Positions 4,810-63,479 of a DNA stretch of 64,000 nucleotides are shown here, one piece after another. The DNA is from an uncultured Clostridia bacterium. GTDB taxonomy: Bacteria; Bacillota; Clostridia; Christensenellales; UBA1242. Every line of letters starts with the position of its first letter. Positions within the stretch are counted from its first letter, which is position 1. The stretch covers positions 28,257-92,256 of the forward strand of contig CALWTK010000002.1 of the NCBI GenBank assembly GCA_944384465.1. Reading direction: 5' to 3'. Made by a program: the position numbers and the translations under genes. The notes below the pieces were generated by a model. That model was given only the letters and a program-made list of their open reading frames with translations. It searched no databases and was not told the origin of the DNA.

Positions 4810-5001
4810 ATGGCTGTTCCAAAGGGAAAAGTGTCAAAGAGCAGACGAGATAAACGTCGTGCCAATTGGAAAGCAACAGTTCCTACATTAGTTGAATGTC
4901 CACATTGTCATGAAAAGAAAGTGGCTCACCAAGTTTGTAAAAATTGCGGATATTATGATGGAGAACAAGTTGTTAATCTTGACAAAAAAGAAGCAAAATA
5001 A
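4810..5001 (+). CDS. rpmF: 50S ribosomal protein L32 (zinc-ribbon form)
   Basis: Starts MAVPKGKVSKSRRDKRRA; CPHC..CKNC zinc ribbon. Confidence 0.95.
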   Translation: MAVPKGKVSKSRRDKRRANWKATVPTLVECPHCHEKKVAHQVCKNCGYYDGEQVVNLDKKEAK

Positions 5002-5021
5002 GGATTTTTCCTTATTTTTTT
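4998..5021 (+). terminator. rpmF intrinsic terminator
   Basis: ATAAGG-attttt-CCTTAT followed by a T-run; overlaps the stop codon. Confidence 0.5.
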
Positions 5022-5097
5022 ATTGTGTTAACAACAAAACATATTTTCGTAAAAAAATTGTTTTCTTATAATTATTTTTATCATGTAGAGGTTGAGT

Positions 5098-6216
5098 ATG
5101 GATGTAATTGAAGCTATTATAGCCAATCAGTCAGATGTCAAAAAGGTGATTTTGAGTGACGCGAAAGGGGATATCAAAAAAATCATAATTAGACCGATTG
5201 AATTGAAAGGTAAATTTATGTGGCAGATTGAAAGATATATTGGCACGCAAGTTTTTCATGAAAATGTAGATAATAAGAGTCTAAAAAGTCTTGATTATAA
5301 AATTTTTAAACAAATTTCAATAGAGATGATAGGGAAAACCATATATTTTACTAAAAAGAATGATACTTATAAGTCAAAAGAAGTAAAAAACAATATTGAA
5401 AAATCAAATATTAGCTTAACTCACAACAAGACGAAATCATATCTTATCAACGAAGGAGACAATGTTCCCGCTCTAGTAGATCTAGGAATATTTACAATGG
5501 ATAAAAAGATAGTCCGTTCGAAATATGATAAATTCAAACAAATCAATAGATTTATAGAGATTGTTGATGATGTGATTCAGCATGAGGGAAAGGAAGATTT
5601 TACTATACTAGATTTCGGGTGTGGCAAGTCATATTTGACATTTTTATTGTACTATTATTTTGTAGAAATAAAGCACAAAAATGTAAAAATTATAGGCTAT
5701 GACCTAAAAGCTGACGTTGTGAAAAATTGCAACGAAATAGCAGAGAAATATGGCTATAAAAATTTGAAATTCTATGTAAGCGATGTGACAAAAGATGAAC
5801 TGTTTTCAGGGAAGATTGATATGATAATCAGTCTGCATGCATGCGATACGGCGACCGATTATGCACTAAATTATGCCATACAACATGATGTAAAATATAT
5901 CTTTTCTGTCCCTTGCTGTCAGCACGAAATCAATTTGAGTATAAAGCATGGTGGGGACTTTGATCTACTTATGAAAGACGGCTTAATCAAAGAGAGATTT
6001 TCTGCTCTTCTCACCGATGCTATTAGAGCGGAGATATTGAGATGTTTGGGCTATAGCGTTGATGTTATAGAATTTGTAGATTTTGCTCATTCGCCTAAAA
6101 ATATCATGATAAGGGCAACATACAAGGGAGGCAAAAAATCTATGCATGACATTGAAAATCTGATTGACAAATATCATTTTAGTCAAACGTTATTTAATCT
6201 CGTCAAAAATAAATAG
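5098..6216 (+). CDS. class I SAM-dependent methyltransferase
   Basis: ORF 5092..6216; ATG 5098 has better GAGG spacing. Motif ILDFGCGKSYLT (SAM motif I) followed by acidic D/E loops. Confidence 0.7.
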   Translation: MDVIEAIIANQSDVKKVILSDAKGDIKKIIIRPIELKGKFMWQIERYIGTQVFHENVDNKSLKSLDYKIFKQISIEMIGKTIYFTKKNDTYKSKEVKNNIEKSNISLTHNKTKSYLINEGDNVPALVDLGIFTMDKKIVRSKYDKFKQINRFIEIVDDVIQHEGKEDFTILDFGCGKSYLTFLLYYYFVEIKHKNVKIIGYDLKADVVKNCNEIAEKYGYKNLKFYVSDVTKDELFSGKIDMIISLHACDTATDYALNYAIQHDVKYIFSVPCCQHEINLSIKHGGDFDLLMKDGLIKERFSALLTDAIRAEILRCLGYSVDVIEFVDFAHSPKNIMIRATYKGGKKSMHDIENLIDKYHFSQTLFNLVKNK

Positions 6217-25833: not shown

Positions 25834-26154
25834 ATGGACATAAAAAGACGGGTTGAAATTGCTGTTTTGGTCAAATATTATGGTGCAATATTGACTGAGA
25901 AACAGCGTGAAATAATAAATATGTATGTAGACAACAATTTGTCGTTGAAAGAAGTGAGTGACGAGCTTAATATTACTAGGCAGGCAGTGAAGGATGCTTT
26001 GGATAACGCAATTGAGACTCTAGAAAATACCGAAAATAAATTGCATTTTATTGCTCGGGATGATAAAATAAAAAAATTATTAGAAAACAAACTTTCTAAT
26101 CAAATTGATATGAGTACAAGATTGGAGATCTTGTCTATACTGGAGGGAGAATAA
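25834..26154 (+). CDS. ylxM: YlxM/UPF0122 HTH protein of the SRP operon
   Basis: YYGAILTEKQREIINMYVDNNLSLKEVSDELNITRQAV; lies immediately upstream of ffh. Confidence 0.85.
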   Translation: MDIKRRVEIAVLVKYYGAILTEKQREIINMYVDNNLSLKEVSDELNITRQAVKDALDNAIETLENTENKLHFIARDDKIKKLLENKLSNQIDMSTRLEILSILEGE

Positions 26155-27500
26155 TGGCACTATTTTCAAGTTTGAGCGAAAGATTAAATCATATATTTAG
26201 CAAGATGACAAAACACGGAAAACTGACCGCTTTGGAGATAAAAGAAGCTATGCGTGAAATTAGAGTGGCACTGCTGGAAGCGGATGTCAATTTCACGGTA
26301 GCGAAAAATTTTATAACAAAGGTCAGTGAATTGGCGGTCGGCGAAGAAATCCTGAAAAGTTTGACCCCGACTCAGCAAGTGATAAAAATCGTACGTGACA
26401 ATCTGATTGAACTGATGGGCGGAGAAAATCAAAAACTAAATGTTTCACCAAAACCGCCTACAATCATCATGATGTGCGGATTGCAAGGTAGTGGTAAGAC
26501 GACTCTGTGCGGAAAATTGGCTCTGAAGTTGAAAAAGGAAGGTAAAAAACCACTTTTAGTCGCGTGTGACATTTATCGTCCAGCAGCGATCGATCAACTA
26601 AAAGTCCTAGGGAAATCAATTCAAATTGATGTCTTCGAACGCGGGACACAAAACCCAGTCAAGACCTGCAAAGAAGCTATAACGTATGCAGAGAAATTCG
26701 CACTAGATACAGTCATCATTGATACAGCAGGGCGCTTGCAGATAGACGAAAAATTGATGGACGAATTAAAGGAAATCAAAAAAGCAATCAACCCGACCGA
26801 AATCTTGCTCGTAATTGACGCCATGATAGGGCAAGAAGCGGTGGCAGTCTCAAAAGCATTCAATGACGCGTTGGACGTTACTGGCGTTGTGCTGACAAAG
26901 ATTGATGGCGACACACGTGGTGGTGCTGCTCTTTCAATCCGCTCAGTTATAGGTAAACCAATCAAATTCGTGGGCGTAGGCGAGAAATTGACCGACCTAG
27001 AACCTTTCTTTCCAGATAGAATGGCGTCCAGAATTTTGGGTATGGGCGATGTGCTGACTTTGATTGACAAAGCGCAAGAAGCAGTGGACGAACAGACAGC
27101 GAAGGAACTGGAAAGGAAATTCAAAGAAAACAGTTTTGATCTAAACGACTATATTGAACAGGTTAATTCGCTGAAAAAAATGGGCGGACTAAAATCAGTC
27201 CTTTCAATGATGCCTGGACTGGGCGGAAAATTGAAACAGATTGAAGACCAAATTGACGAAAAAGCACTAGAAAGGAACAAAGCTATCATCCAATCTATGA
27301 CGGCAAAAGAGAGGGCTAACCCTGACATCATCAATGGTAGCAGACGCCAAAGGATAGCAAAGGGCGCAGGCGTACAAGTGAGCGACGTCAATCAACTTAT
27401 CAAACAATTCAACCAATCAAAAGAAATGATGCGTATGATGAAGAATCCAAAAGCTTATGGCGGTAAAATGGCAATGATAAGAAAACTTATGGGCAATTAA
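26154..27500 (+). CDS. ffh: signal recognition particle protein Ffh (SRP54)
   Basis: GLQGSGKTT, DTAGRLQ and TKIDGDTRGG motifs, followed by a Met-rich M domain. Confidence 0.97.
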   Translation: MALFSSLSERLNHIFSKMTKHGKLTALEIKEAMREIRVALLEADVNFTVAKNFITKVSELAVGEEILKSLTPTQQVIKIVRDNLIELMGGENQKLNVSPKPPTIIMMCGLQGSGKTTLCGKLALKLKKEGKKPLLVACDIYRPAAIDQLKVLGKSIQIDVFERGTQNPVKTCKEAITYAEKFALDTVIIDTAGRLQIDEKLMDELKEIKKAINPTEILLVIDAMIGQEAVAVSKAFNDALDVTGVVLTKIDGDTRGGAALSIRSVIGKPIKFVGVGEKLTDLEPFFPDRMASRILGMGDVLTLIDKAQEAVDEQTAKELERKFKENSFDLNDYIEQVNSLKKMGGLKSVLSMMPGLGGKLKQIEDQIDEKALERNKAIIQSMTAKERANPDIINGSRRQRIAKGAGVQVSDVNQLIKQFNQSKEMMRMMKNPKAYGGKMAMIRKLMGN

Positions 27501-27514
27501 TAAGCTTTTGGATT

Positions 27515-27529
27515 ATGAAGAATACAGCT
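27515..27529 (+). repeat. short degenerate copy of the ffh tail start (ATGAAGAATacAGCT)
   Basis: Compare ATGAAGAATCCAAAAGCT at 27438 in ffh. Confidence 0.35.
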
Positions 27530-27561
27530 CGTCCAAAAATCTTATTTTTGGACTTGAACGG

Positions 27562-27633
27562 ATGAAAAACCCTAAAGGCAAAGGCGAAAAATTTAAGATG
27601 ATGAAGAACTTGTTGAATGGCGGAGGTTTTTAA
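27562..27633 (+). pseudogene. relic of an alternative ffh 3' end
   Basis: In-frame 23-codon relic, MKNPKGKGEKFKMMKNLLNGGGF*. It begins with the same MKNPK as the ffh tail and has no RBS. Confidence 0.5.
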
Positions 27634-27678
27634 TCTTAAATTTTCAAACGTTGATTTAGGGGAAAGGTGTCATCATTA

Positions 27679-27704
27679 CATATGGCAAATAATTTTGCCA
27701 TATG
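27679..27704. repeat. perfect palindrome with 11-bp arms
   Basis: CATATGGCAAA-taat-TTTGCCATATG, located immediately 5' of the second ffh-tail copy. Confidence 0.8.
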
Positions 27705-27708
27705 CGAG

Positions 27709-27771
27709 ATGAAGAATCCAAAAGCCTATGGTGGTAAAATGGCTATTATACGTAAATTAATGGGGCAATAA
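27709..27771 (+). pseudogene. displaced copy of the last 21 codons of ffh
   Basis: MKNPKAYGGKMAIIRKLMGQ* versus the native MKNPKAYGGKMAMIRKLMGN* (27438..27500). By my hand alignment 52/63 nt are identical. Confidence 0.8.
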
Positions 27772-27782
27772 ATTGCAAAAAG

Positions 27783-27811
27783 TTATAGTAAATTTTACTA
27801 TAATTTTTTTT
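27783..27811 (+). terminator. intrinsic terminator after the displaced ffh tail
   Basis: TTATAGTA-aattt-TACTATAA followed by TTTTTTTT. The stem is AT-rich and weak. Confidence 0.45.
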
Positions 27812-27891
27812 AATAAAAATTCTTATTCCTGTTTAGGAATATTCAAGACAGATCCTTTTTATTGTTGTAGAATATAAAAAGGAGAATGTTT

Positions 27892-28121
27892 ATGAGGAAT
27901 AGAATTAAAATTGAAATGGTATATGATTATATGAAGAAGAACAATCTATCAAAAACGAAGTTCTGCAAGATTGCAATATCAGTCCTATAATCTTCAAAAA
28001 AATAGAGATGTTCAATCTCACTGGCGGAAAAATACCAAAAGGTTACAATTTTAATATTGCGACGTTATTTAAGATTGCAAAATTCATAGGCGTTAAGTTA
28101 TATGAATTGTTTGAAAATTAA
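27892..28121 (+). pseudogene. XRE-family HTH regulator, frameshifted
   Basis: Frame 1 reads MRNRIKIEMVYDYMKKNNLSKTKFCKIAISVL*. Shifting one base restores NISPIIFKKIEMFNLTGGKIPKGYNFNIATLFKIAKFIGVKLYELFEN*. The 230-nt span is not a multiple of 3. RBS AAGGAG is present. Confidence 0.7.
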
Positions 28122-28273
28122 TTTGCATATTATATATTCTTAAGAGATGAAAGGGGGTGTGAAAAACTAAATATTACTATGCTTTTTATAAATAATTGCT
28201 AAATATGTACAGGAATATATAAATGATTACACGAAAAATAAATATACAATATATTGTGTAAATAAATATAAAA

Positions 28274-28298
28274 AACCACAAGTCATATGCTTGTGGTT
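28274..28298 (-). terminator. intrinsic terminator of the 406-aa gene
   Basis: AACCACAAG-tcatatg-CTTGTGGTT. On the minus strand it is followed by a T-run (the A-run at 28269..28275 on the plus strand). Confidence 0.65.
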
Positions 28299-28356
28299 CG
28301 ATTTTCCAGATTAATCATATCACAAAATTTGATATTGTCAATACCTATTTAAAAAT

Positions 28357-29577
28357 TTATGCTTGTTCTTGAAGATTTCTTAAATTCATATATTTATTTT
28401 GTTCCAAGTTTGATGTTACCATTTGAACAATCTGTCCAAATTCTTCATAATTAGTTGGTTGGATACCAGTCTTTTTGATATAATCAACACAATAATTAAT
28501 TGCGTTAGTCGACTGCTCAGTGAAGCAGTTGCTATATTGATTAAGGATATTGTCAGGGATATTACCTTGAAGTGAGGCAATATTTTTTGCTTGTTTATCG
28601 TTGTTGACCAAAACGTCTTGCATAGTTTGATAGATCAATTTTGATAGAGATTGGTTCAACTCTTGAGAGTTGTTTGACATATTTGCTAGAGCGATTTGAG
28701 TATTTTGATTTGAATTACTTTTCGCTACAAATTCGTTACTGGCAGTTTGACCTTGACTAGATAAATTTGACAGCATGATAGGTGCTGTGGTTTCCAATTC
28801 TTTGAATGATGTAGTCGAACTAATGAATGATGTGAATATGTTGTGTTGTTTTATGAATTCCTCTAGTTCAGGGCTATAATTGGATAGGGCAGTCGTATCA
28901 ACTATGTTTATTTGTTGTTCTATTTGATCAAGGGAGGATCCTATTTCATCGGCAATGTTTTGAGGAATGTCGCCTTGCTGGGTATAGGTAGAAGCCTCCA
29001 GTGGAAACTTTTGCATCTCTTGCTCATAAGCATTGAGAAGAGATTTTATTGCATTTTGTAGTTTTGAAAAATCAGGGTCGTTATTGTTTAAAATATCCAA
29101 ATTTTTCAATCTAGCCAGATTTTTTGTCGCAACTCTTTCGTCCGCTGAGCCATTTTGATATTTCTCTTCTATCAAAACGATTTTATCTATTATATCAGCA
29201 TATTGCTTAGTTAGTTCACAATGTTGAATGTCCGCTTTCATAGTCTGTAATGATTTTTCGAGGTTTGATAAGACGGTTTGTGGGTTTTCTGTTTTATTAA
29301 ATTCGGTATATTCATTTACAAATATGTTTGTTCCTTCACATACATTTTGAATATTGTGAAACAGTTGAGATGTTTGATCTATGACATCTTGAGGGAATAC
29401 GTCAGGTTGATTGATATATCTTAGCATGTTGTTTGCATATTCATACAATCTAACATTTCTAGTTTTCATAACCTCAATTTCTTCTGTATAATCGGGTTGG
29501 GAGGATAGTGTGGCTTTCCTTTCTTCAATTTGAGTCAAAAGTTGGTCTATCTTTTGAGATAATTCGTTATAAGTCAT
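28357..29577 (-). CDS. hypothetical protein, 406 aa, Q/N/S-rich, helical, with three internal repeats
   Basis: Clean ORF with RBS AGGAGA. A repeated motif occurs at aa 58 (PDVFPQDVID), aa 201 (QGDIPQNIAD) and aa 337 (QGNIPDNILN). There is no TM helix or signal peptide, and I recognise no family motif. Confidence 0.6.
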   Translation of the reverse strand: MTYNELSQKIDQLLTQIEERKATLSSQPDYTEEIEVMKTRNVRLYEYANNMLRYINQPDVFPQDVIDQTSQLFHNIQNVCEGTNIFVNEYTEFNKTENPQTVLSNLEKSLQTMKADIQHCELTKQYADIIDKIVLIEEKYQNGSADERVATKNLARLKNLDILNNNDPDFSKLQNAIKSLLNAYEQEMQKFPLEASTYTQQGDIPQNIADEIGSSLDQIEQQINIVDTTALSNYSPELEEFIKQHNIFTSFISSTTSFKELETTAPIMLSNLSSQGQTASNEFVAKSNSNQNTQIALANMSNNSQELNQSLSKLIYQTMQDVLVNNDKQAKNIASLQGNIPDNILNQYSNCFTEQSTNAINYCVDYIKKTGIQPTNYEEFGQIVQMVTSNLEQNKYMNLRNLQEQA

Positions 29578-29595
29578 CTTTTTCTCCTATATTTT

Positions 29596-29624
29596 ATTAT
29601 AACATATCAAATCTATATTGTCAA
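29596..29624 (-). promoter_or_regulatory. near-consensus sigma-A promoter of the 406-aa gene
   Basis: The minus strand reads TTGACA-17 nt-TATAAT with a TGT extension (complement of 29619..29624 and 29596..29601). Confidence 0.65.
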
Positions 29625-29679
29625 AAATAATGATGTGCGATATATGGCAAATATAAACGTAAAAATTTATAAAAAACAC

Positions 29680-29708
29680 TTTACAAATATTTGTCAGTAT
29701 GATATTAT
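29680..29708 (+). promoter_or_regulatory. rpsP operon promoter
   Basis: TTTACA(29680..29685)-17 nt-TATTAT(29703..29708), TGn-extended. Confidence 0.55.
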
Positions 29709-29751
29709 GTAAAGGTAAAATACTTTACAGATGTAAATAAAAGGAGAAATT

Positions 29752-30048
29752 ATGGCTGTTAAAATTAGATTGACTCGTTTGGGAGACAAAAAATCACCTT
29801 TTTATCGTGTCGTTGTTGCTGACAGTAGAGTGGCTAGAGATGGTAAATACATCGAACAGATCGGTACTTACAATCCGCTAAAAGACCCTGCTGAAATCAA
29901 AATCAACAATGAACTCGCTCTCAAATGGTTGCGTCAAGGTGCTCAACCTACTGAAACTGCTAAAACATTGCTTCAAAAAGTCGGCGTTTTGGAAGTGAAA
30001 GGTAATTCTGTACCTAAGACAAACAACAAGAAAAAGAAAAAAGCATAG
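29752..30048 (+). CDS. rpsP: 30S ribosomal protein S16
   Basis: [26 protein letters not shown]. Confidence 0.97.
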
Positions 30049-33315: not shown

Positions 33316-34536
33316 ATGGAAAAAATTGTAGATGATGAATTGAAAAAAGCATATAAACAACTCAAATATTGGGGTATAGCGGCTAAAGAATTGAGCGATT
33401 CTAAAATAATTGAACGTGTAGAACTATTAAAAAAGGCACCTAGACACTCAGCCATCGATGAATTGTATTCGTCTAAATATATTTGGGGAGTCACAGCTGC
33501 TAACCTTAGGAATTATGACTTATCTAATCTACCTATAGATCTATTGTACCGAACAAGTTTTTCTAATAAGACAAAATGGCCATCACAAGACAAATTGCCA
33601 AAAGGGTTTCATCCTGATAAGATTATCGAACAAGCAAAGACTTTTAAAGGATTAGGTGTAGAAAAATTACATGAGCAAGGCGTGACAGGGAAGGGAGTGA
33701 CAATAGTATATATTGATAAACCTTTTGACACCCGTCATATTGAATTTGACAGTAAAAAAATTGAATATATAGTGAGGGGAGACGGAGAATTTAATTTTCA
33801 CGGGTATGCAGTAGCTGCACGTTTGGCTGGTCAAAACATGGGGATCGCCAAAGACATTAATATGATATATTATGCTTGTGGTGGTATAGGGAAATATAAT
33901 GATTATTTTACTGACTATGTTTCATATGAACTAAAAATATTGAAAGATATCATCAAAAGGGTGGAAAACAATGAGCAAATTGCCGCTATAGGAGTATCTG
34001 CTTCCATATCTTATCATATATATATGTTAAAAAATGATAGACTGAAAAAACGTTTTGAATCAACATTCAATGAATTGAAAAAGAGATTGGACGAATTAGG
34101 TGTTCCATTGATAGATAGCGAAACTTTTTGGGATAAAGGTTTTTCATATTGCTTTAAAATTGATCCAAAATTGCCAAATGACTATGTTGACAACTATTTT
34201 GATAGATTTTCTGCTATGAGCAATGAGGAAAAGATGTCTGTAATAGATGCCGATAAATGCATACCTCTAGTTTACACATTAGATAGTTATAAATATGAAA
34301 ATTTGATAGGGAGTGCCAGTTGGAGTATTCCACAGGTTGTGGGGCTATATGCTTTGGCAAAGCAAATTGATAAAGATCTAACCTTTGATGAATTCGTAGA
34401 GATAACAAGAAAAACATTGGATCCAGCCAACATACATGGAGTCAGATTGATCAATGCTCCAAATTTGATCAAAGAAGTACAACATCAAAAAGAAGTGAAA
34501 GCAGAATCAACATTAACTATAAGTCCAGAAAATTAA
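33316..34536 (+). CDS. subtilase (S8)-like serine peptidase, no signal peptide, divergent
   Basis: Triad-like motifs in the order and spacing of subtilisins: [10 protein letters not shown]134KPF, FH162[10 protein letters not shown] and GSAS335[13 protein letters not shown] (compare GTSMAxPhVAG). The N-terminus is hydrophilic. Confidence 0.6.
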
Positions 34537-35263: not shown

Positions 35264-35315
35264 TTGACAATATTGTAACATTTTGTTAATATTTAAATGT
35301 AACATTATGTTACAT
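35264..35315 (+). promoter_or_regulatory. promoter plus palindromic operator of the membrane-protein gene
   Basis: TTGACA(35264..35269)-17 nt-TAATAT(35287..35292). A 19-bp palindrome, ATGTAACAT-T-ATGTTACAT (35297..35315), lies between the -10 and the RBS. A third half-site, TTGTAACAT, is in the spacer (35273..35281). Confidence 0.6.
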
Positions 35316-35325
35316 GGGAGGTAAT

Positions 35326-35973
35326 ATGCAAAAAAGGATATTAGATAAAAGAGAGAGTATTATTATAATTATATTTTTAACAATAATATCAATATTATGT
35401 TTTGTGAAATTTATAATTGATTATATTGATATATCTGAATCGCTAAAATTACTGCAACAAAGCTATGATTCACTTCAGCTATCAAATATAAATATCATTA
35501 AATTTATTTCAATTTTTGCCTTGGTACTATGCATGATTTTATTTTTATCAACATTTGTACCTCTGTTTATAAAGAATATCAATGTAAAGAGGGTACTGTT
35601 GTTGTCGACAATCATATTTTGCGCCACATGTATTGTGTTCTATTTCATATTATTATTTTATTTGGGAGACGGGTCAAATTTAGATTCAGAAGAGTTTCTA
35701 ACATACATGATTGAAAGCCAATTCGTTGATAATTTTAGTTACTTGATAAGCCCTATTATATTGATTGTCTTGCTATGTTTTTCAAGCTTTTATCTATCAA
35801 ATTTATTGTTTGACAAGGAAAAAGTTGTTGATCAAATTAGCACTGAATCAGCTACCGACAAACCTATTCAAGAAAAAACTTTAGAAGTAGAAATTGAAAA
35901 ACTAAAAAGTCAATTGCGCATAAAAGATCTAGAAAAAGAGTATATGAGATTGAAAGGCAAGCTTGACGAGTAG
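35326..35973 (+). CDS. hypothetical membrane protein, about 4 TM helices plus a C-terminal coiled coil
   Basis: ORF 35314.. trimmed to ATG 35326 behind GGGAGG. Four hydrophobic segments are followed by KTLEVEIEKLKSQLRIKDLEKEYMRLKGKLDE. Confidence 0.6.
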   Translation: MQKRILDKRESIIIIIFLTIISILCFVKFIIDYIDISESLKLLQQSYDSLQLSNINIIKFISIFALVLCMILFLSTFVPLFIKNINVKRVLLLSTIIFCATCIVFYFILLFYLGDGSNLDSEEFLTYMIESQFVDNFSYLISPIILIVLLCFSSFYLSNLLFDKEKVVDQISTESATDKPIQEKTLEVEIEKLKSQLRIKDLEKEYMRLKGKLDE

Positions 35974-62027: not shown

Positions 62028-62058
62028 AATCAGTACTCTTGCAGTATTGATTTTTTTT
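62028..62058 (+). terminator. efp intrinsic terminator
   Basis: AATCAGTACT-cttgc-AGTATTGATT (one G-U pair) followed by TTTTTTTT. Confidence 0.7.
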
Positions 62059-62094
62059 ACGTATTTTAGAAAAATTTTCTTAATACCTTTATGT

Positions 62095-63000
62095 ATGTTA
62101 AAGGACTATTTGGATAGAGAATTATACAACACAATTATAAAAACATTCTGTTTCAATGATATAACAGAAATTCGTATGCGCGCAAATGAAAACTTGATTG
62201 TCGTCGTAAAAAACAAAAAATTTTACCTAAAAGACAACCAAGGTGAATTCATAAAAGTGAATACCAATCTCATCGAAAATTTCATCAAAAAAGCTAGTGA
62301 AAATTCAATCTACGCTTTCAACGACAGTATAGTAAATGGCTATATTACTTTGCCAAAAGGGATAAGGGTAGGACTGTGCGGAAATATTGTGACTGATGAC
62401 GATAAGATAGTCACCATAAAAGAATTCCAAGCCATCAACATACGAATACCACATTTTATAAAAAATTGTAGTTTGCCTGCATTTGATTTTATTGTCAATG
62501 GTGAAGAAATAAAAAATACGCTGATAATATCCCCGCCTGGCGCGGGTAAGACCACTTTTATACGCGACCTAGTCTATCAATTAAATCAACATAATATACC
62601 TAAAAATATTTTGATAGCAGATGAGCGAAATGAGATATGTTCGGTTGTGAATGGTGAGCCAAATGTGAATTTGGGTGGCTTTTGTGACGTGTATTCAAAT
62701 TGCTCAAAAAAATTTGCCTTCAAAAATGGAATTAGGAGCATGCGTCCAGACGTCATTGTCACGGATGAAATAGATTTAGAGCGAGATCTAGAGTACATAA
62801 TTGAAGCTATCAATTCGGGTGTAAATGTCATTGCAACAATACATGCAAAAGATTTAAACCAACTGAAAAAGAAGAAAAATTTTGACACTATTTTAGAAGA
62901 AAAATTCTTCTCTAGATTCGTTGTCCTATCTAGCGATGAGGGACCTGGTACGCTTTGTGGGGTGTATGACGAAAAATTGAATTGTATTTATTGTAGGTGA
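62095..63000 (+). CDS. spoIIIAA: stage III sporulation protein AA (ATPase)
   Basis: ISPPGAGKTTFIRDL Walker A, VIVTDEI Walker B. The track's TTG start at 62047 lies inside the efp terminator, so ATG 62095 is preferred. Confidence 0.85.
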   Translation: MLKDYLDRELYNTIIKTFCFNDITEIRMRANENLIVVVKNKKFYLKDNQGEFIKVNTNLIENFIKKASENSIYAFNDSIVNGYITLPKGIRVGLCGNIVTDDDKIVTIKEFQAINIRIPHFIKNCSLPAFDFIVNGEEIKNTLIISPPGAGKTTFIRDLVYQLNQHNIPKNILIADERNEICSVVNGEPNVNLGGFCDVYSNCSKKFAFKNGIRSMRPDVIVTDEIDLERDLEYIIEAINSGVNVIATIHAKDLNQLKKKKNFDTILEEKFFSRFVVLSSDEGPGTLCGVYDEKLNCIYCR

Positions 63001-63479
63001 ATATGATAAAGTGGATTTTAATAATAGTGCTAATAGCAGTCATAATGCTGATCGCCTATTCGGTGAGTGAACAATATAAGGACAAATATGACTTTTATAA
63101 CAACCTGAAAATGTTTTTAAATCAGTTCAAAATAAACATCTCTTTTAGACAGGAAAAAATCAATAATTTTCTAAACAGTATCACCCCCAAAAGACAATTT
63201 AAATGCTTTATAGAAGAATATAAAAAATATTTATCATCTGGTGAACTTAACCTAGACAATGTAAAAGTTCTAGAAGATGAAGACAAGGCAATTTTGAATG
63301 ATATAGTAAAAAACATAGGAAAATATGACGCAAAAAATGAAGTACAGCAATTAGATACATTTTTGTTGACAGTAGATAGTAAACTAAGCAAAGCACTACA
63401 AGACAAAAACAAATTGTGCCCCATGATAATAAAACTGGCACTATTGTTTGCAATAGGACTAAGTATTCTGTTGATTTGA
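62997..63479 (+). CDS. spoIIIAB: stage III sporulation protein AB
   Basis: About 160 aa with an N- and a C-terminal TM helix; position after spoIIIAA. Confidence 0.75.
   Translation: MNMIKWILIIVLIAVIMLIAYSVSEQYKDKYDFYNNLKMFLNQFKINISFRQEKINNFLNSITPKRQFKCFIEEYKKYLSSGELNLDNVKVLEDEDKAILNDIVKNIGKYDAKNEVQQLDTFLLTVDSKLSKALQDKNKLCPMIIKLALLFAIGLSILLI

Follow-up and report, generated by a model that had tools for sequence, protein, structure and literature searches.

Analysis of a 64-kb stretch of DNA (here called the window) from an uncultured Clostridia bacterium revealed a stack of copies of the 3' end of ffh, the universal and essential gene encoding SRP54/Ffh. In the window, ffh (26154 to 27500, + strand) encodes a protein of 448 amino acids (aa), and the Pfam M-domain model ends at residue 426, where the exchangeable tail described below starts. 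The gene is preceded by smc, ftsY, and ylxM, with no recombinase among them. The usual downstream neighbor of ffh, rpsP (ribosomal protein S16; 29752 to 30048, + strand), is located 2251 nucleotides (nt) away. The arrangement behind the ffh stop codon supports repeated, position-specific replacement of the Ffh tail.

Copies of the ffh 3' end in the window

The last 63 nt of ffh (27438 to 27500, + strand; MKNPKAYGGKMAMIRKLMGN*) form the live tail, designated N, the newest cassette of the stack. This segment is repeated at 27709 to 27771 on the same strand (MKNPKAYGGKMAIIRKLMGQ*; tail Q) with 52 of 63 nt and 18 of 20 residues identical, exactly as an earlier preliminary description of this DNA had claimed. 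The left edge of the similarity is sharp. Eight of the 11 nucleotide differences account for six synonymous codon changes, and the other three result in two replacements, M to I and N to Q. The proposal that both copies evolved as coding sequence is upheld by this predominance of synonymous changes and by displaced copies that match live tails of sister strains at 62 of 63 and 72 of 72 nt. The tail stack is locus-specific: the pair is the sole sizeable short-range direct repeat within the window, and no comparable gene-end repeat was found in 331 kb of related DNA.

A second displaced tail, B, lies between the two (27562 to 27633, + strand; MKNPKGKGEKFKMMKNLLNGGGF*). It had been suspected of being an Ffh tail variant, and the alignment revealed a similarity better than chance. 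Against the "type B" Ffh tails of relatives, it reached a BLOSUM62 score of 66 to 68 with the stop codon in register, whereas none of 2000 dinucleotide shuffles of the whole gap scored above 33. The live tail of sister strains P0013 to P0021 ends in the same 14 residues (KFKMMKNLLNGGGF*) as this copy, which represents the decayed form of the 451-aa Ffh allele still in use in sister strains. Of a further relic proposed at 27515, the motif ATGAAGAAT is present (27515 to 27523), but the match is weak, and sister strains read GTGAAGAAT or ATAAAGAAT at this position.

The three tails are separated by spacer 1 (27501 to 27561, + strand) and spacer alpha (27634 to 27708, + strand). The distal copy, Q, is the ancestral tail and is contiguous with native downstream sequence, as in strains L098 and L099, which have an empty site. 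It is followed by an AT-rich hairpin with a T8 run (27777 to 27811, + strand), the native ffh terminator, which is common to single-tail strains. The terminator noted earlier is thus confirmed (-12.1 kcal/mol, z = -5.4), although the GC-demanding consensus terminator scan missed it because it is too AT-rich. The whole stack lies upstream of this terminator, inside the predicted ffh transcript. The similarity beyond the distal copy stops 16 to 40 nt after the stop codon. A simple tandem duplication was rejected because no spacer recurs behind the distal copy, the spacers are unique, and stacked spacers are unrelated to each other.

Variation of the stack among strains and species

The locus was compared in more than 100 related contigs from at least four species, with about 34 stacks, all from metagenome assemblies. 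Three Ffh endings are live among proteins 97 to 99% identical to that of the window: N (...AMIRKLMGN, window copy 1), Q (...AMIRKLMGQ, close to window copy 3), and B (...KFKMMKNLLNGGGF, 451 aa, the intact form of window copy 2). Strains L098 to L101 carry only Q at an empty site, L110 to L112 carry B-alpha-Q, and the window shares N-sp1-B-alpha-Q with L103 to L105 and L107 to L109. In L102 and L106, N-sp1-B is followed by an XRE gene, and L092 to L097 have B and the XRE gene with no distal copy. Compared to the Q-only strains, the window contains exactly 271 extra nt, located between GAAATG and ATGCGAG, and the 110 nt past its distal copy are identical to L099. Between the displaced distal Q of L110 and the live Q of L098, 62 of 63 nt are identical, and the displaced middle B of L103 does not differ from the live B of L110 at any of its 72 nt.

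A sister species (Ffh 95% identical) repeats the series with B-alpha-Q and N-sp1-B-alpha-Q. For a third species, 22 contigs were read and 10 of them inspected; all 22 carry a single tail. The series within the species, together with that of the sister species, indicates that the distal copy is ancestral and that the newest tail adjoins the gene body. Both the empty-site genomes (L098 to L101 and L090) and the stepwise intermediates (L110 to L112 and L123 to L126) that repeated replacement predicts were therefore found, and the core of the preliminary description, namely, footprints of repeated Ffh C-terminus replacement at one fixed position with the original tail at the distal end, holds. The stack is a population polymorphism, not a private relic.

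All of these data derive from metagenome assemblies of mixed strains, in which alleles of different strains might be concatenated artificially. Such an artifact is practically excluded because the structures were recovered across dozens of samples and from several assemblers (SPAdes, MEGAHIT, IDBA, and Logan, in ENA and NCBI) and because the unique spacers exist only between copies. In addition, the repeats are at most 95 nt long and diverged, and they are shorter than the k-mers implied by the contig names (k141 and k127).

The window belongs to Candidatus Onthoplasma faecigallinarum, a chicken-gut bacterium, with whose Ffh that of the window is 99% identical. Two or three tail copies were found in 6 of 20 species-level relatives with Ffh 85 to 94% identical (L008, L014, L016, L017, L018, and L019), and a metagenome scan yielded five relevant contigs, including two new stacks (L086 and L087) and a new single tail (L090). 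No tail copy was detected in any of 61 more distant outgroups. The stack is thus a feature specific to the genus Candidatus Onthoplasma, in which the last 20 to 23 codons of ffh, beyond the conserved M domain, are exchangeable. The suggestion that ffh and rpsP are unusually far apart in the window was also correct. The gap measures 188 to 2284 nt in the 20 species-level relatives and 24 to 384 nt in the 59 outgroups with rpsP on the contig (mostly 35 to 130 nt, with one of 752 nt).

The presence of spoIIIAA and spoIIIAB in the window identifies the host as a Clostridia-type Firmicute. These two genes (62047 to 63479) occur here in an organism named "-plasma," and public records label it variously as Clostridia, Christensenella, or Firmicutes. 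Nearly all genes of the window are located on the + strand.

Joining point, spacers, and hairpins

All displaced copies begin at one and the same base, as seen in at least 10 junctions that involve at least five nonhomologous spacer families. The boundary reads [hairpin ...T]^ATG NNN ATG ATG AAR AAY CC and falls between the first and the second ATG of the native GAA ATG^ATG CGT ATG ATG AAG, at the end of the Pfam M-domain model. In the window, the junction region AAAGAA ATG^ATG CGT ATG occupies 27420 to 27437 (+ strand), and codons M425 and M426 flank the fixed joining point (27428^27429). Successive copies are spaced 95 to 203 nt apart in each of the approximately 34 stacks, with no open reading frame (ORF) or gene remnant between the copies in any of these. 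The stacks are thus composed of hairpin-ended pieces of about 130 bases.

The spacers between the repeats measure 37 to 140 nt and belong to at least five families that are unrelated in sequence (sp1, alpha, beta, gamma/epsilon, and delta). They are confined to stacks, where they lie between copies, and no source for them was found elsewhere in the window. Three-copy stacks hold two unrelated spacers. The possibility that the spacers were templated by nearby sequence or by the XRE allele was tested and rejected, as the alignment scores did not exceed those of shuffles.

Spacer 1 contains an inverted copy of the tail start, the ATGAAGAAT fragment, and a hairpin. Its segment 27500 to 27514 is the reverse complement of the cassette's own tail start at 27444 to 27458, so that AATCCAAAAGCTTAT pairs with ATAAGCTTTTGGATT around the live stop codon. 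This inverted repeat had been described as 10 bp long; it is real but extends over 15 nt. The hairpin GTCCAAAAA-TCTTA-TTTTTGGAC follows at 27531 to 27553. Spacer alpha consists of a conserved core, an inner hairpin, and a junction remnant. The 24-nt core AGGGGAAAGGTGTCATCATTACAT (27658 to 27681) is 90 to 100% conserved across four species and includes TCATCAT (27670 to 27676), the reverse complement of the junction ATGATGA. The inner hairpin (27679 to 27704) is the palindrome CATATGGCAAA/TTTGCCATATG, whose 11-bp arms are exact as reported earlier, and the remnant ATGCGAG is positioned at 27702 to 27708.

A perfect hairpin of 6 to 12 bp is always located directly 5' of the joining point of a displaced copy. 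All 13 junction segments analyzed fold into a hairpin, and for 6 of them none of 200 shuffles folded as well. At least 7 of the 13 folds have an outer stem in which the junction or the tail start pairs with its inverted copy (TCATCAT/ATGATGA, TTTCATCAT/ATGATGAAA, and GGATTTTTT/AAAAAATCC). The inner stem sequence differs wholly between species (GGCAAA.., AATAAAA.., GAC.., and AAC..), yet the pairing is still perfect. Because the joint always lies at the 3' foot of a perfect hairpin, usually with an inverted copy of the junction, we infer a site- and structure-specific enzyme encoded elsewhere.

Decay and recombination of the stacks

Silent copies are decaying relics. A compensated frameshift turned AYGG into GKGE in window copy 2, 31 nt are missing from the distal copy of L113, a silent copy of L105 is frameshifted, and the silent copies of L016 and L087 are decayed at their 3' ends. 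The stacks are also subject to recombination. In L092, the live tail is a chimera that starts as N type and ends as B type. The sister species shows no difference between its N and Q tails over 50 nt, and the copies within L008 and L014 are 96 to 97% identical over 91 to 95 nt. Together with the import described below, these observations indicate that homologous recombination moves, homogenizes, and collapses stacks.

The window itself contains a block imported from another lineage of the species (27432 to approximately 29700). This block is 96 to 98% identical to L098, L103, and L110 and only 80 to 92% identical to L100, whereas the ffh body of the window and the sequence from rpsP onward are about 99% identical to L100 and L101. 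The left breakpoint of the import (clade I/clade II) falls within 27420 to 27431, i.e., the same 12 nt as the junction. The whole stretch between the ffh tail and rpsP comes from this second lineage, whose ffh has diverged by about 12%. In other strains, segments of both lineages alternate on a fine scale within the ffh body.

Concerted evolution of the copies would be expected if the stack were an ancient in situ tandem duplication that is kept as an RNA element (ffh 3' untranslated region or rpsP leader). Gene conversion would keep the copies alike, and unequal crossing-over would reshuffle them; neither foreign DNA nor insertions would be involved. The near-identity of copies in L008 and L014 and of N and Q in the sister species fits this explanation, as do an alpha spacer common to four species, hairpins that remain perfect despite sequence turnover, and the position of the stack within the ffh transcript. 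It is nevertheless very unlikely. The lack of a spacer after the distal copy shows that the units are not simple tandem ones, three-copy stacks contain two unrelated spacers, and the tails of one stack stem from different allele classes (A and B), each of which is live elsewhere. Moreover, a single tail suffices in many strains and even in entire species, and silent copies decay. A search of 27300 to 29800 against Rfam revealed no family at E < 0.1; the five matches were to eukaryotic snoRNA models, sub-threshold (best E = 0.11) and far below the gathering scores.

The scrambled content of the spacers and the import boundary bear on a second alternative, which is the main rival and does not involve a mobile cassette. 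A recurrent double-strand break at ATG^ATG, caused by a nuclease or a fragile site, would be repaired by template switching. The tail would be copied from homeologous DNA of an incoming strand or sister chromosome, and fold-back or microhomology rejoining would leave a palindromic scar with the old tail intact. The spacers do hold scrambled forward and inverted tail-start fragments. Spacer 1 is composed of the reverse complement of tail nt 7 to 21, nt 1 to 9 in the forward orientation, and a hairpin from TCCAAAAA-like sequence, and spacer 1 of L018 is similar. In the two-tier hairpin, the outer arm repeats the 15-nt junction sequence in inverted form, microhomology is available in the ATG cluster (hairpins end in ...ATG), and the import of the window begins exactly at the junction and extends one-sidedly over 2.3 kb to rpsP. 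We consider break repair unlikely even so. Single-tail alleles lack the junction palindrome that would make the site fragile, and a break at a precise base would still require a sequence-specific enzyme, of which none was found; the ORFs of the island show no nuclease signature. In addition, the alpha core beside the hairpin, with its conservation in four species, does not resemble random filler.

Search for an integrated element

The preliminary description had interpreted the layout as attL/attR-type remnants of integrative elements. No integrase was detected among the scanned ORFs of the window, as stated before, nor was a transposase, and no recombinase Pfam family was found on the called genes around ffh in L001 and L092 to L136. 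In more than 100 contigs of at least four species, neither an integrase nor a transposase nor a full element was present at the locus. A degenerate tail pattern gave no matches in 2.9 M viral contigs, and the alpha-core motif had a single chance match there, within a coding sequence and with no adjoining tail. The tail had no match in 50,697 phage records (tblastn), and 27420 to 27830 had only one irrelevant 46-nt match in 72,556 plasmids (blastn). Flanking repeats are present, but the collections of genomes, viruses, phages, and plasmids yielded no parental integrative and conjugative element (ICE) or integrative and mobilizable element (IME). We did not find the ffh 3' end as an att site in the literature, nor homology-facilitated illegitimate recombination together with hairpins. 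There is no mention of ffh among the integration targets listed in PMC5704250, and PMC12540744 reports ffs, not ffh, as a target.

Integrase-bearing elements (prophages, ICEs, IMEs, or satellites) would have integrated repeatedly in an attB at the ffh 3' end and lost their interiors, leaving tandem attL/attR remnants similar to cis-mobilizable elements (CIMEs). The order of gene body, new tail, and old tail fits this history, as do the sharp left edge of homology and the proximal position of the newest copy. Empty sites are present in relatives as an integrated element would require (L098 to L101 and L090), and tandem accretion and decay to CIMEs at housekeeping 3' ends are well documented (PMC5704250). 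Some strains have a phage-type XRE repressor gene directly behind the B tail, and its divergent orientation to a small helix-turn-helix (HTH) ORF resembles the remnant of a lysogeny switch; B-alpha retains 4 nt (TCTT) of the end of the XRE gene. Other features make such remnants decidedly unlikely. Neither the integrase nor a tail-bearing attP turned up in the collections named above, and all of the approximately 34 arrays have copies only 95 to 203 nt apart; independent trimming of at least five unrelated elements, one for each spacer family, to a remainder of 40 to 140 nt is implausible. The direct repeats flank only the spacer. The cargo-like genes of the gap (the broken HTH ORF and the 406-aa ORF) lie beyond the distal copy and not between copies, and no tail copy is located distal to the XRE, 76-aa, or 406-aa genes. 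Close relatives (L103 to L109 and L113 to L122) have the same multicopy arrangement with no insertion, an outcome that the preliminary description itself had named as a refutation, and the two-tier hairpins at the joints are not features of classical att sites. The attL/attR part of the earlier interpretation is therefore not supported.

Three further candidates lacked support. For an integron cassette array, no intI or attI is adjacent, and the boxes are TCATCAT/ATGATGA, with no GTTRRRY. A diversity-generating retroelement was rejected outright: the window contains no reverse transcriptase gene, and the 11 differences involve all bases and are not A specific. For a homing endonuclease in the island, the 406-aa ORF and the other ORFs of the gap match nothing in Pfam, PHROGs, PADLOC, NCBIfam, or PDB. 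Of the features of IS200/IS605-type elements, a right-end hairpin and a fixed target (..ATG^) are present, and a left-end hairpin occurs only in some cassettes; Y1_Tnp was not found in the window.

Comparison with known systems

In its logic, the ffh stack resembles four known systems, namely, CIME/IME accretion, integron cassette arrays, orphan C-terminal modules, and the atp6 displacement, yet each of them has a defining feature that the stack lacks. Integrative elements and CIMEs are known to accumulate in tandem behind housekeeping genes, such as ICESt1/CIME at fda and IMEs at rpsI, rplL, rpmG, and guaA (PMC5704250). As in these cases, the gene is kept intact by an incoming replacement end, events stack, and remnants without recombination genes persist. 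The ffh stack differs in that no integrase-bearing partner was found anywhere searched, the units are only 95 to 203 nt long with no gene remnant, the joint lies at the foot of a hairpin with an inverted junction copy, and ffh is not a listed target.

Integrons collect short promoterless cassettes at one fixed site, with the newest proximal. Their attC site is an imperfect palindrome with conserved outer boxes in the layout R''(RYYYAAC)-L''-loop-L'-R'(GTTRRRY), in which the target or the next unit contributes one outer box. The loop varies, and so do the inner stems, which nevertheless stay complementary. The ffh stack can be written in the same way, as R''-L''-loop-L'^R', with the R' box supplied by the ffh junction, recombination at the foot of the structure, and the newest cassette proximal. 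Unlike in integrons, no intI adjoins the site, the boxes are TCATCAT/ATGATGA, the stems are shorter, and the host is a Clostridia-type Firmicute. Furthermore, the "attI" equivalent lies within essential coding sequence, and the cassettes carry a gene end and not a gene.

The orphan C-terminal toxin modules of rhs, cdiA, and maf comprise hundreds of codons, are accompanied by immunity genes, and are exchanged by homologous recombination at a long conserved motif. They resemble the ffh tails in that a new C-terminal segment is placed at a conserved point, the old one is displaced and silent and keeps a piece of the conserved region, and the arrays are polymorphic between strains. The ffh tails, in contrast, comprise only 20 to 23 codons, belong to a housekeeping protein, and have hairpin joints. 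In mitochondrial atp6 of Allomyces macrogynus, a foreign in-frame C-terminal end was reportedly inserted with the native end kept untranslated downstream (Paquin et al., 1994). A homing endonuclease ORF lies between the ends there, whereas no ORF is present between the ffh copies.

Members of the IS200/IS605 family and PATEs have subterminal hairpins at both ends and a fixed target of 4 to 5 nt located 5' of the left end, and they are mobilized by TnpA (Y1 HUH). Like PATEs and the hairpin attP of CTX-phi, the ffh cassettes are hairpin units of 100 to 200 nt beside a short fixed sequence without target duplication. Repeated insertion would place the newest unit proximal, and the sites would be of the folded single-strand kind. 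At ffh, however, no TnpA or dif-like site was seen, the cleavage point is at the foot of the hairpin and not 8 to 19 nt away, and the units carry a host gene end.

Neighboring genes

The region between the stack and rpsP contains a frameshifted remnant of a 76-aa HTH-like ORF (27892 to 28121, + strand), which is located outside the stack and is intact in sister strains. This ORF is confined to the species group (8 proteins in 5.8 billion) and was rejected as a known mobile module on this ground. In B-live strains, the gene for the phage-type XRE repressor (67 aa) points toward ffh and extends over the ffh stop codon (L092, 5353 to 5556, - strand). It is divergent from the 76-aa ORF, and the pair resembles a cI/cro-type arrangement.

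A 406-aa all-helical orphan ORF (28357 to 29577, - strand) is the resident gene of the ffh-rpsP gap. It is Q/N-rich, lies on the minority strand, and has a perfect TTGACA-17-TATAAT promoter (29624 to 29596) and a terminator (28299 to 28273). Positional homologues in other species (L008 and L015) are only 16 to 23% identical. A single-sequence AlphaFold2 model was all-helical with a predicted local distance difference test (pLDDT) score of 47, too poor for a fold search. An intergenic segment of 125 nt (28234 to 28358), including the minus-strand terminator, is about 80% conserved; its counterpart lies directly past the ffh stop in L004 and past the second tail in L014. This segment is probably a piece of the ancestral ffh-rpsP spacer.

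Housekeeping operons are interspersed with orphan genes in the window genome. A second 406-aa orphan ORF (33316 to 34536, + strand) lies between yraN (UPF0102) and rplS; comparison ruled out that the two 406-aa ORFs are paralogues. A 219-aa orphan (35314 to 35973, + strand) follows rplS. No Pfam family was found for either of these two ORFs. In L014, the region upstream of ffh in the smc/ftsY area (4831 to 5475) contains an internal repeat with a period of about 84 nt and 64 to 71% identity.

Discussion

The interpretation that we prefer, with slightly less than even confidence, is that the locus is a polymorphic stack of Ffh tail cassettes inserted site-specifically and in association with hairpins by a trans-encoded enzyme that recognizes a folded single strand. 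A short DNA piece of 95 to 203 nt would bring an alternative tail, a stop codon, and a hairpin-ended 3' flank, and it would be joined into ffh at a single phosphodiester, GAA ATG^ATG (27428^27429). The resident tail would be pushed downstream intact, fall silent, and then decay. Repeated insertion would result in the order N-B-Q of the window, with the newest copy nearest to the gene. The enzyme may be a recombinase or an HUH-type nuclease acting on a folded single strand, as at integron attC, CTX-phi attP, and IS200/IS605 ends. Once formed, stacks may be moved between strains and species by homologous recombination, and recombination between copies may collapse them and leave chimeric tails. 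The stack has been observed directly, with its polarity, fixed boundary, hairpins, polymorphism, decay, and lack of a resident element, whereas the enzyme, a single-strand intermediate, and any selective reason for switching tails are inferred.

Several points weigh against insertion of cassettes by such an enzyme. No candidate enzyme was found in the search, which covered the window, and no excised or circular form was seen. The spacer families sp1 and L017 have no outer inverted copy adjoining the hairpin. The occurrence of the alpha spacer in four species implies that some stacks are old or were spread by ordinary recombination, with fewer independent insertions, and three-copy stacks could have arisen by homologous recombination between two-copy stacks. 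Palindrome-correcting template switching can yield perfect, hypervariable hairpins without selection, and fold-back repair of a recurrent break would leave similar scars.

In a bolder form of the model, which we regard as doubtful, the stacks would represent an undescribed class of miniature hairpin-ended "gene-tail cassettes" that insert as folded single strands into an essential gene. Such a system would be integron-like, with the attI within ffh and a trans-acting recombinase or HUH enzyme. It would perhaps be maintained by conflict-driven switching between A-type and B-type tails, e.g., if a phage or toxin factor targets the Ffh tail.

To our knowledge, the Ffh C terminus has not been recognized as a modular, exchangeable part, and we know of no description of the ffh 3' end as an insertion hotspot. 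In this organism, three alternative endings of one essential protein coexist within one species, and the history of their replacement is kept behind the gene. Every intermediate is still present in the population, which makes the locus a natural and directly testable system. It bears on how the end of a coding sequence can be exchanged while the gene stays functional throughout, on base-precise, hairpin-associated joining that is independent of a resident integrase, and on whether genetic conflict acts on the SRP54 tail. If break repair is the true explanation, the locus would point to a new site-specific nuclease. If a structure-specific recombinase makes the joint, single-strand recombination of the integron/CTX-phi type would be extended to Clostridia and to intragenic targets.

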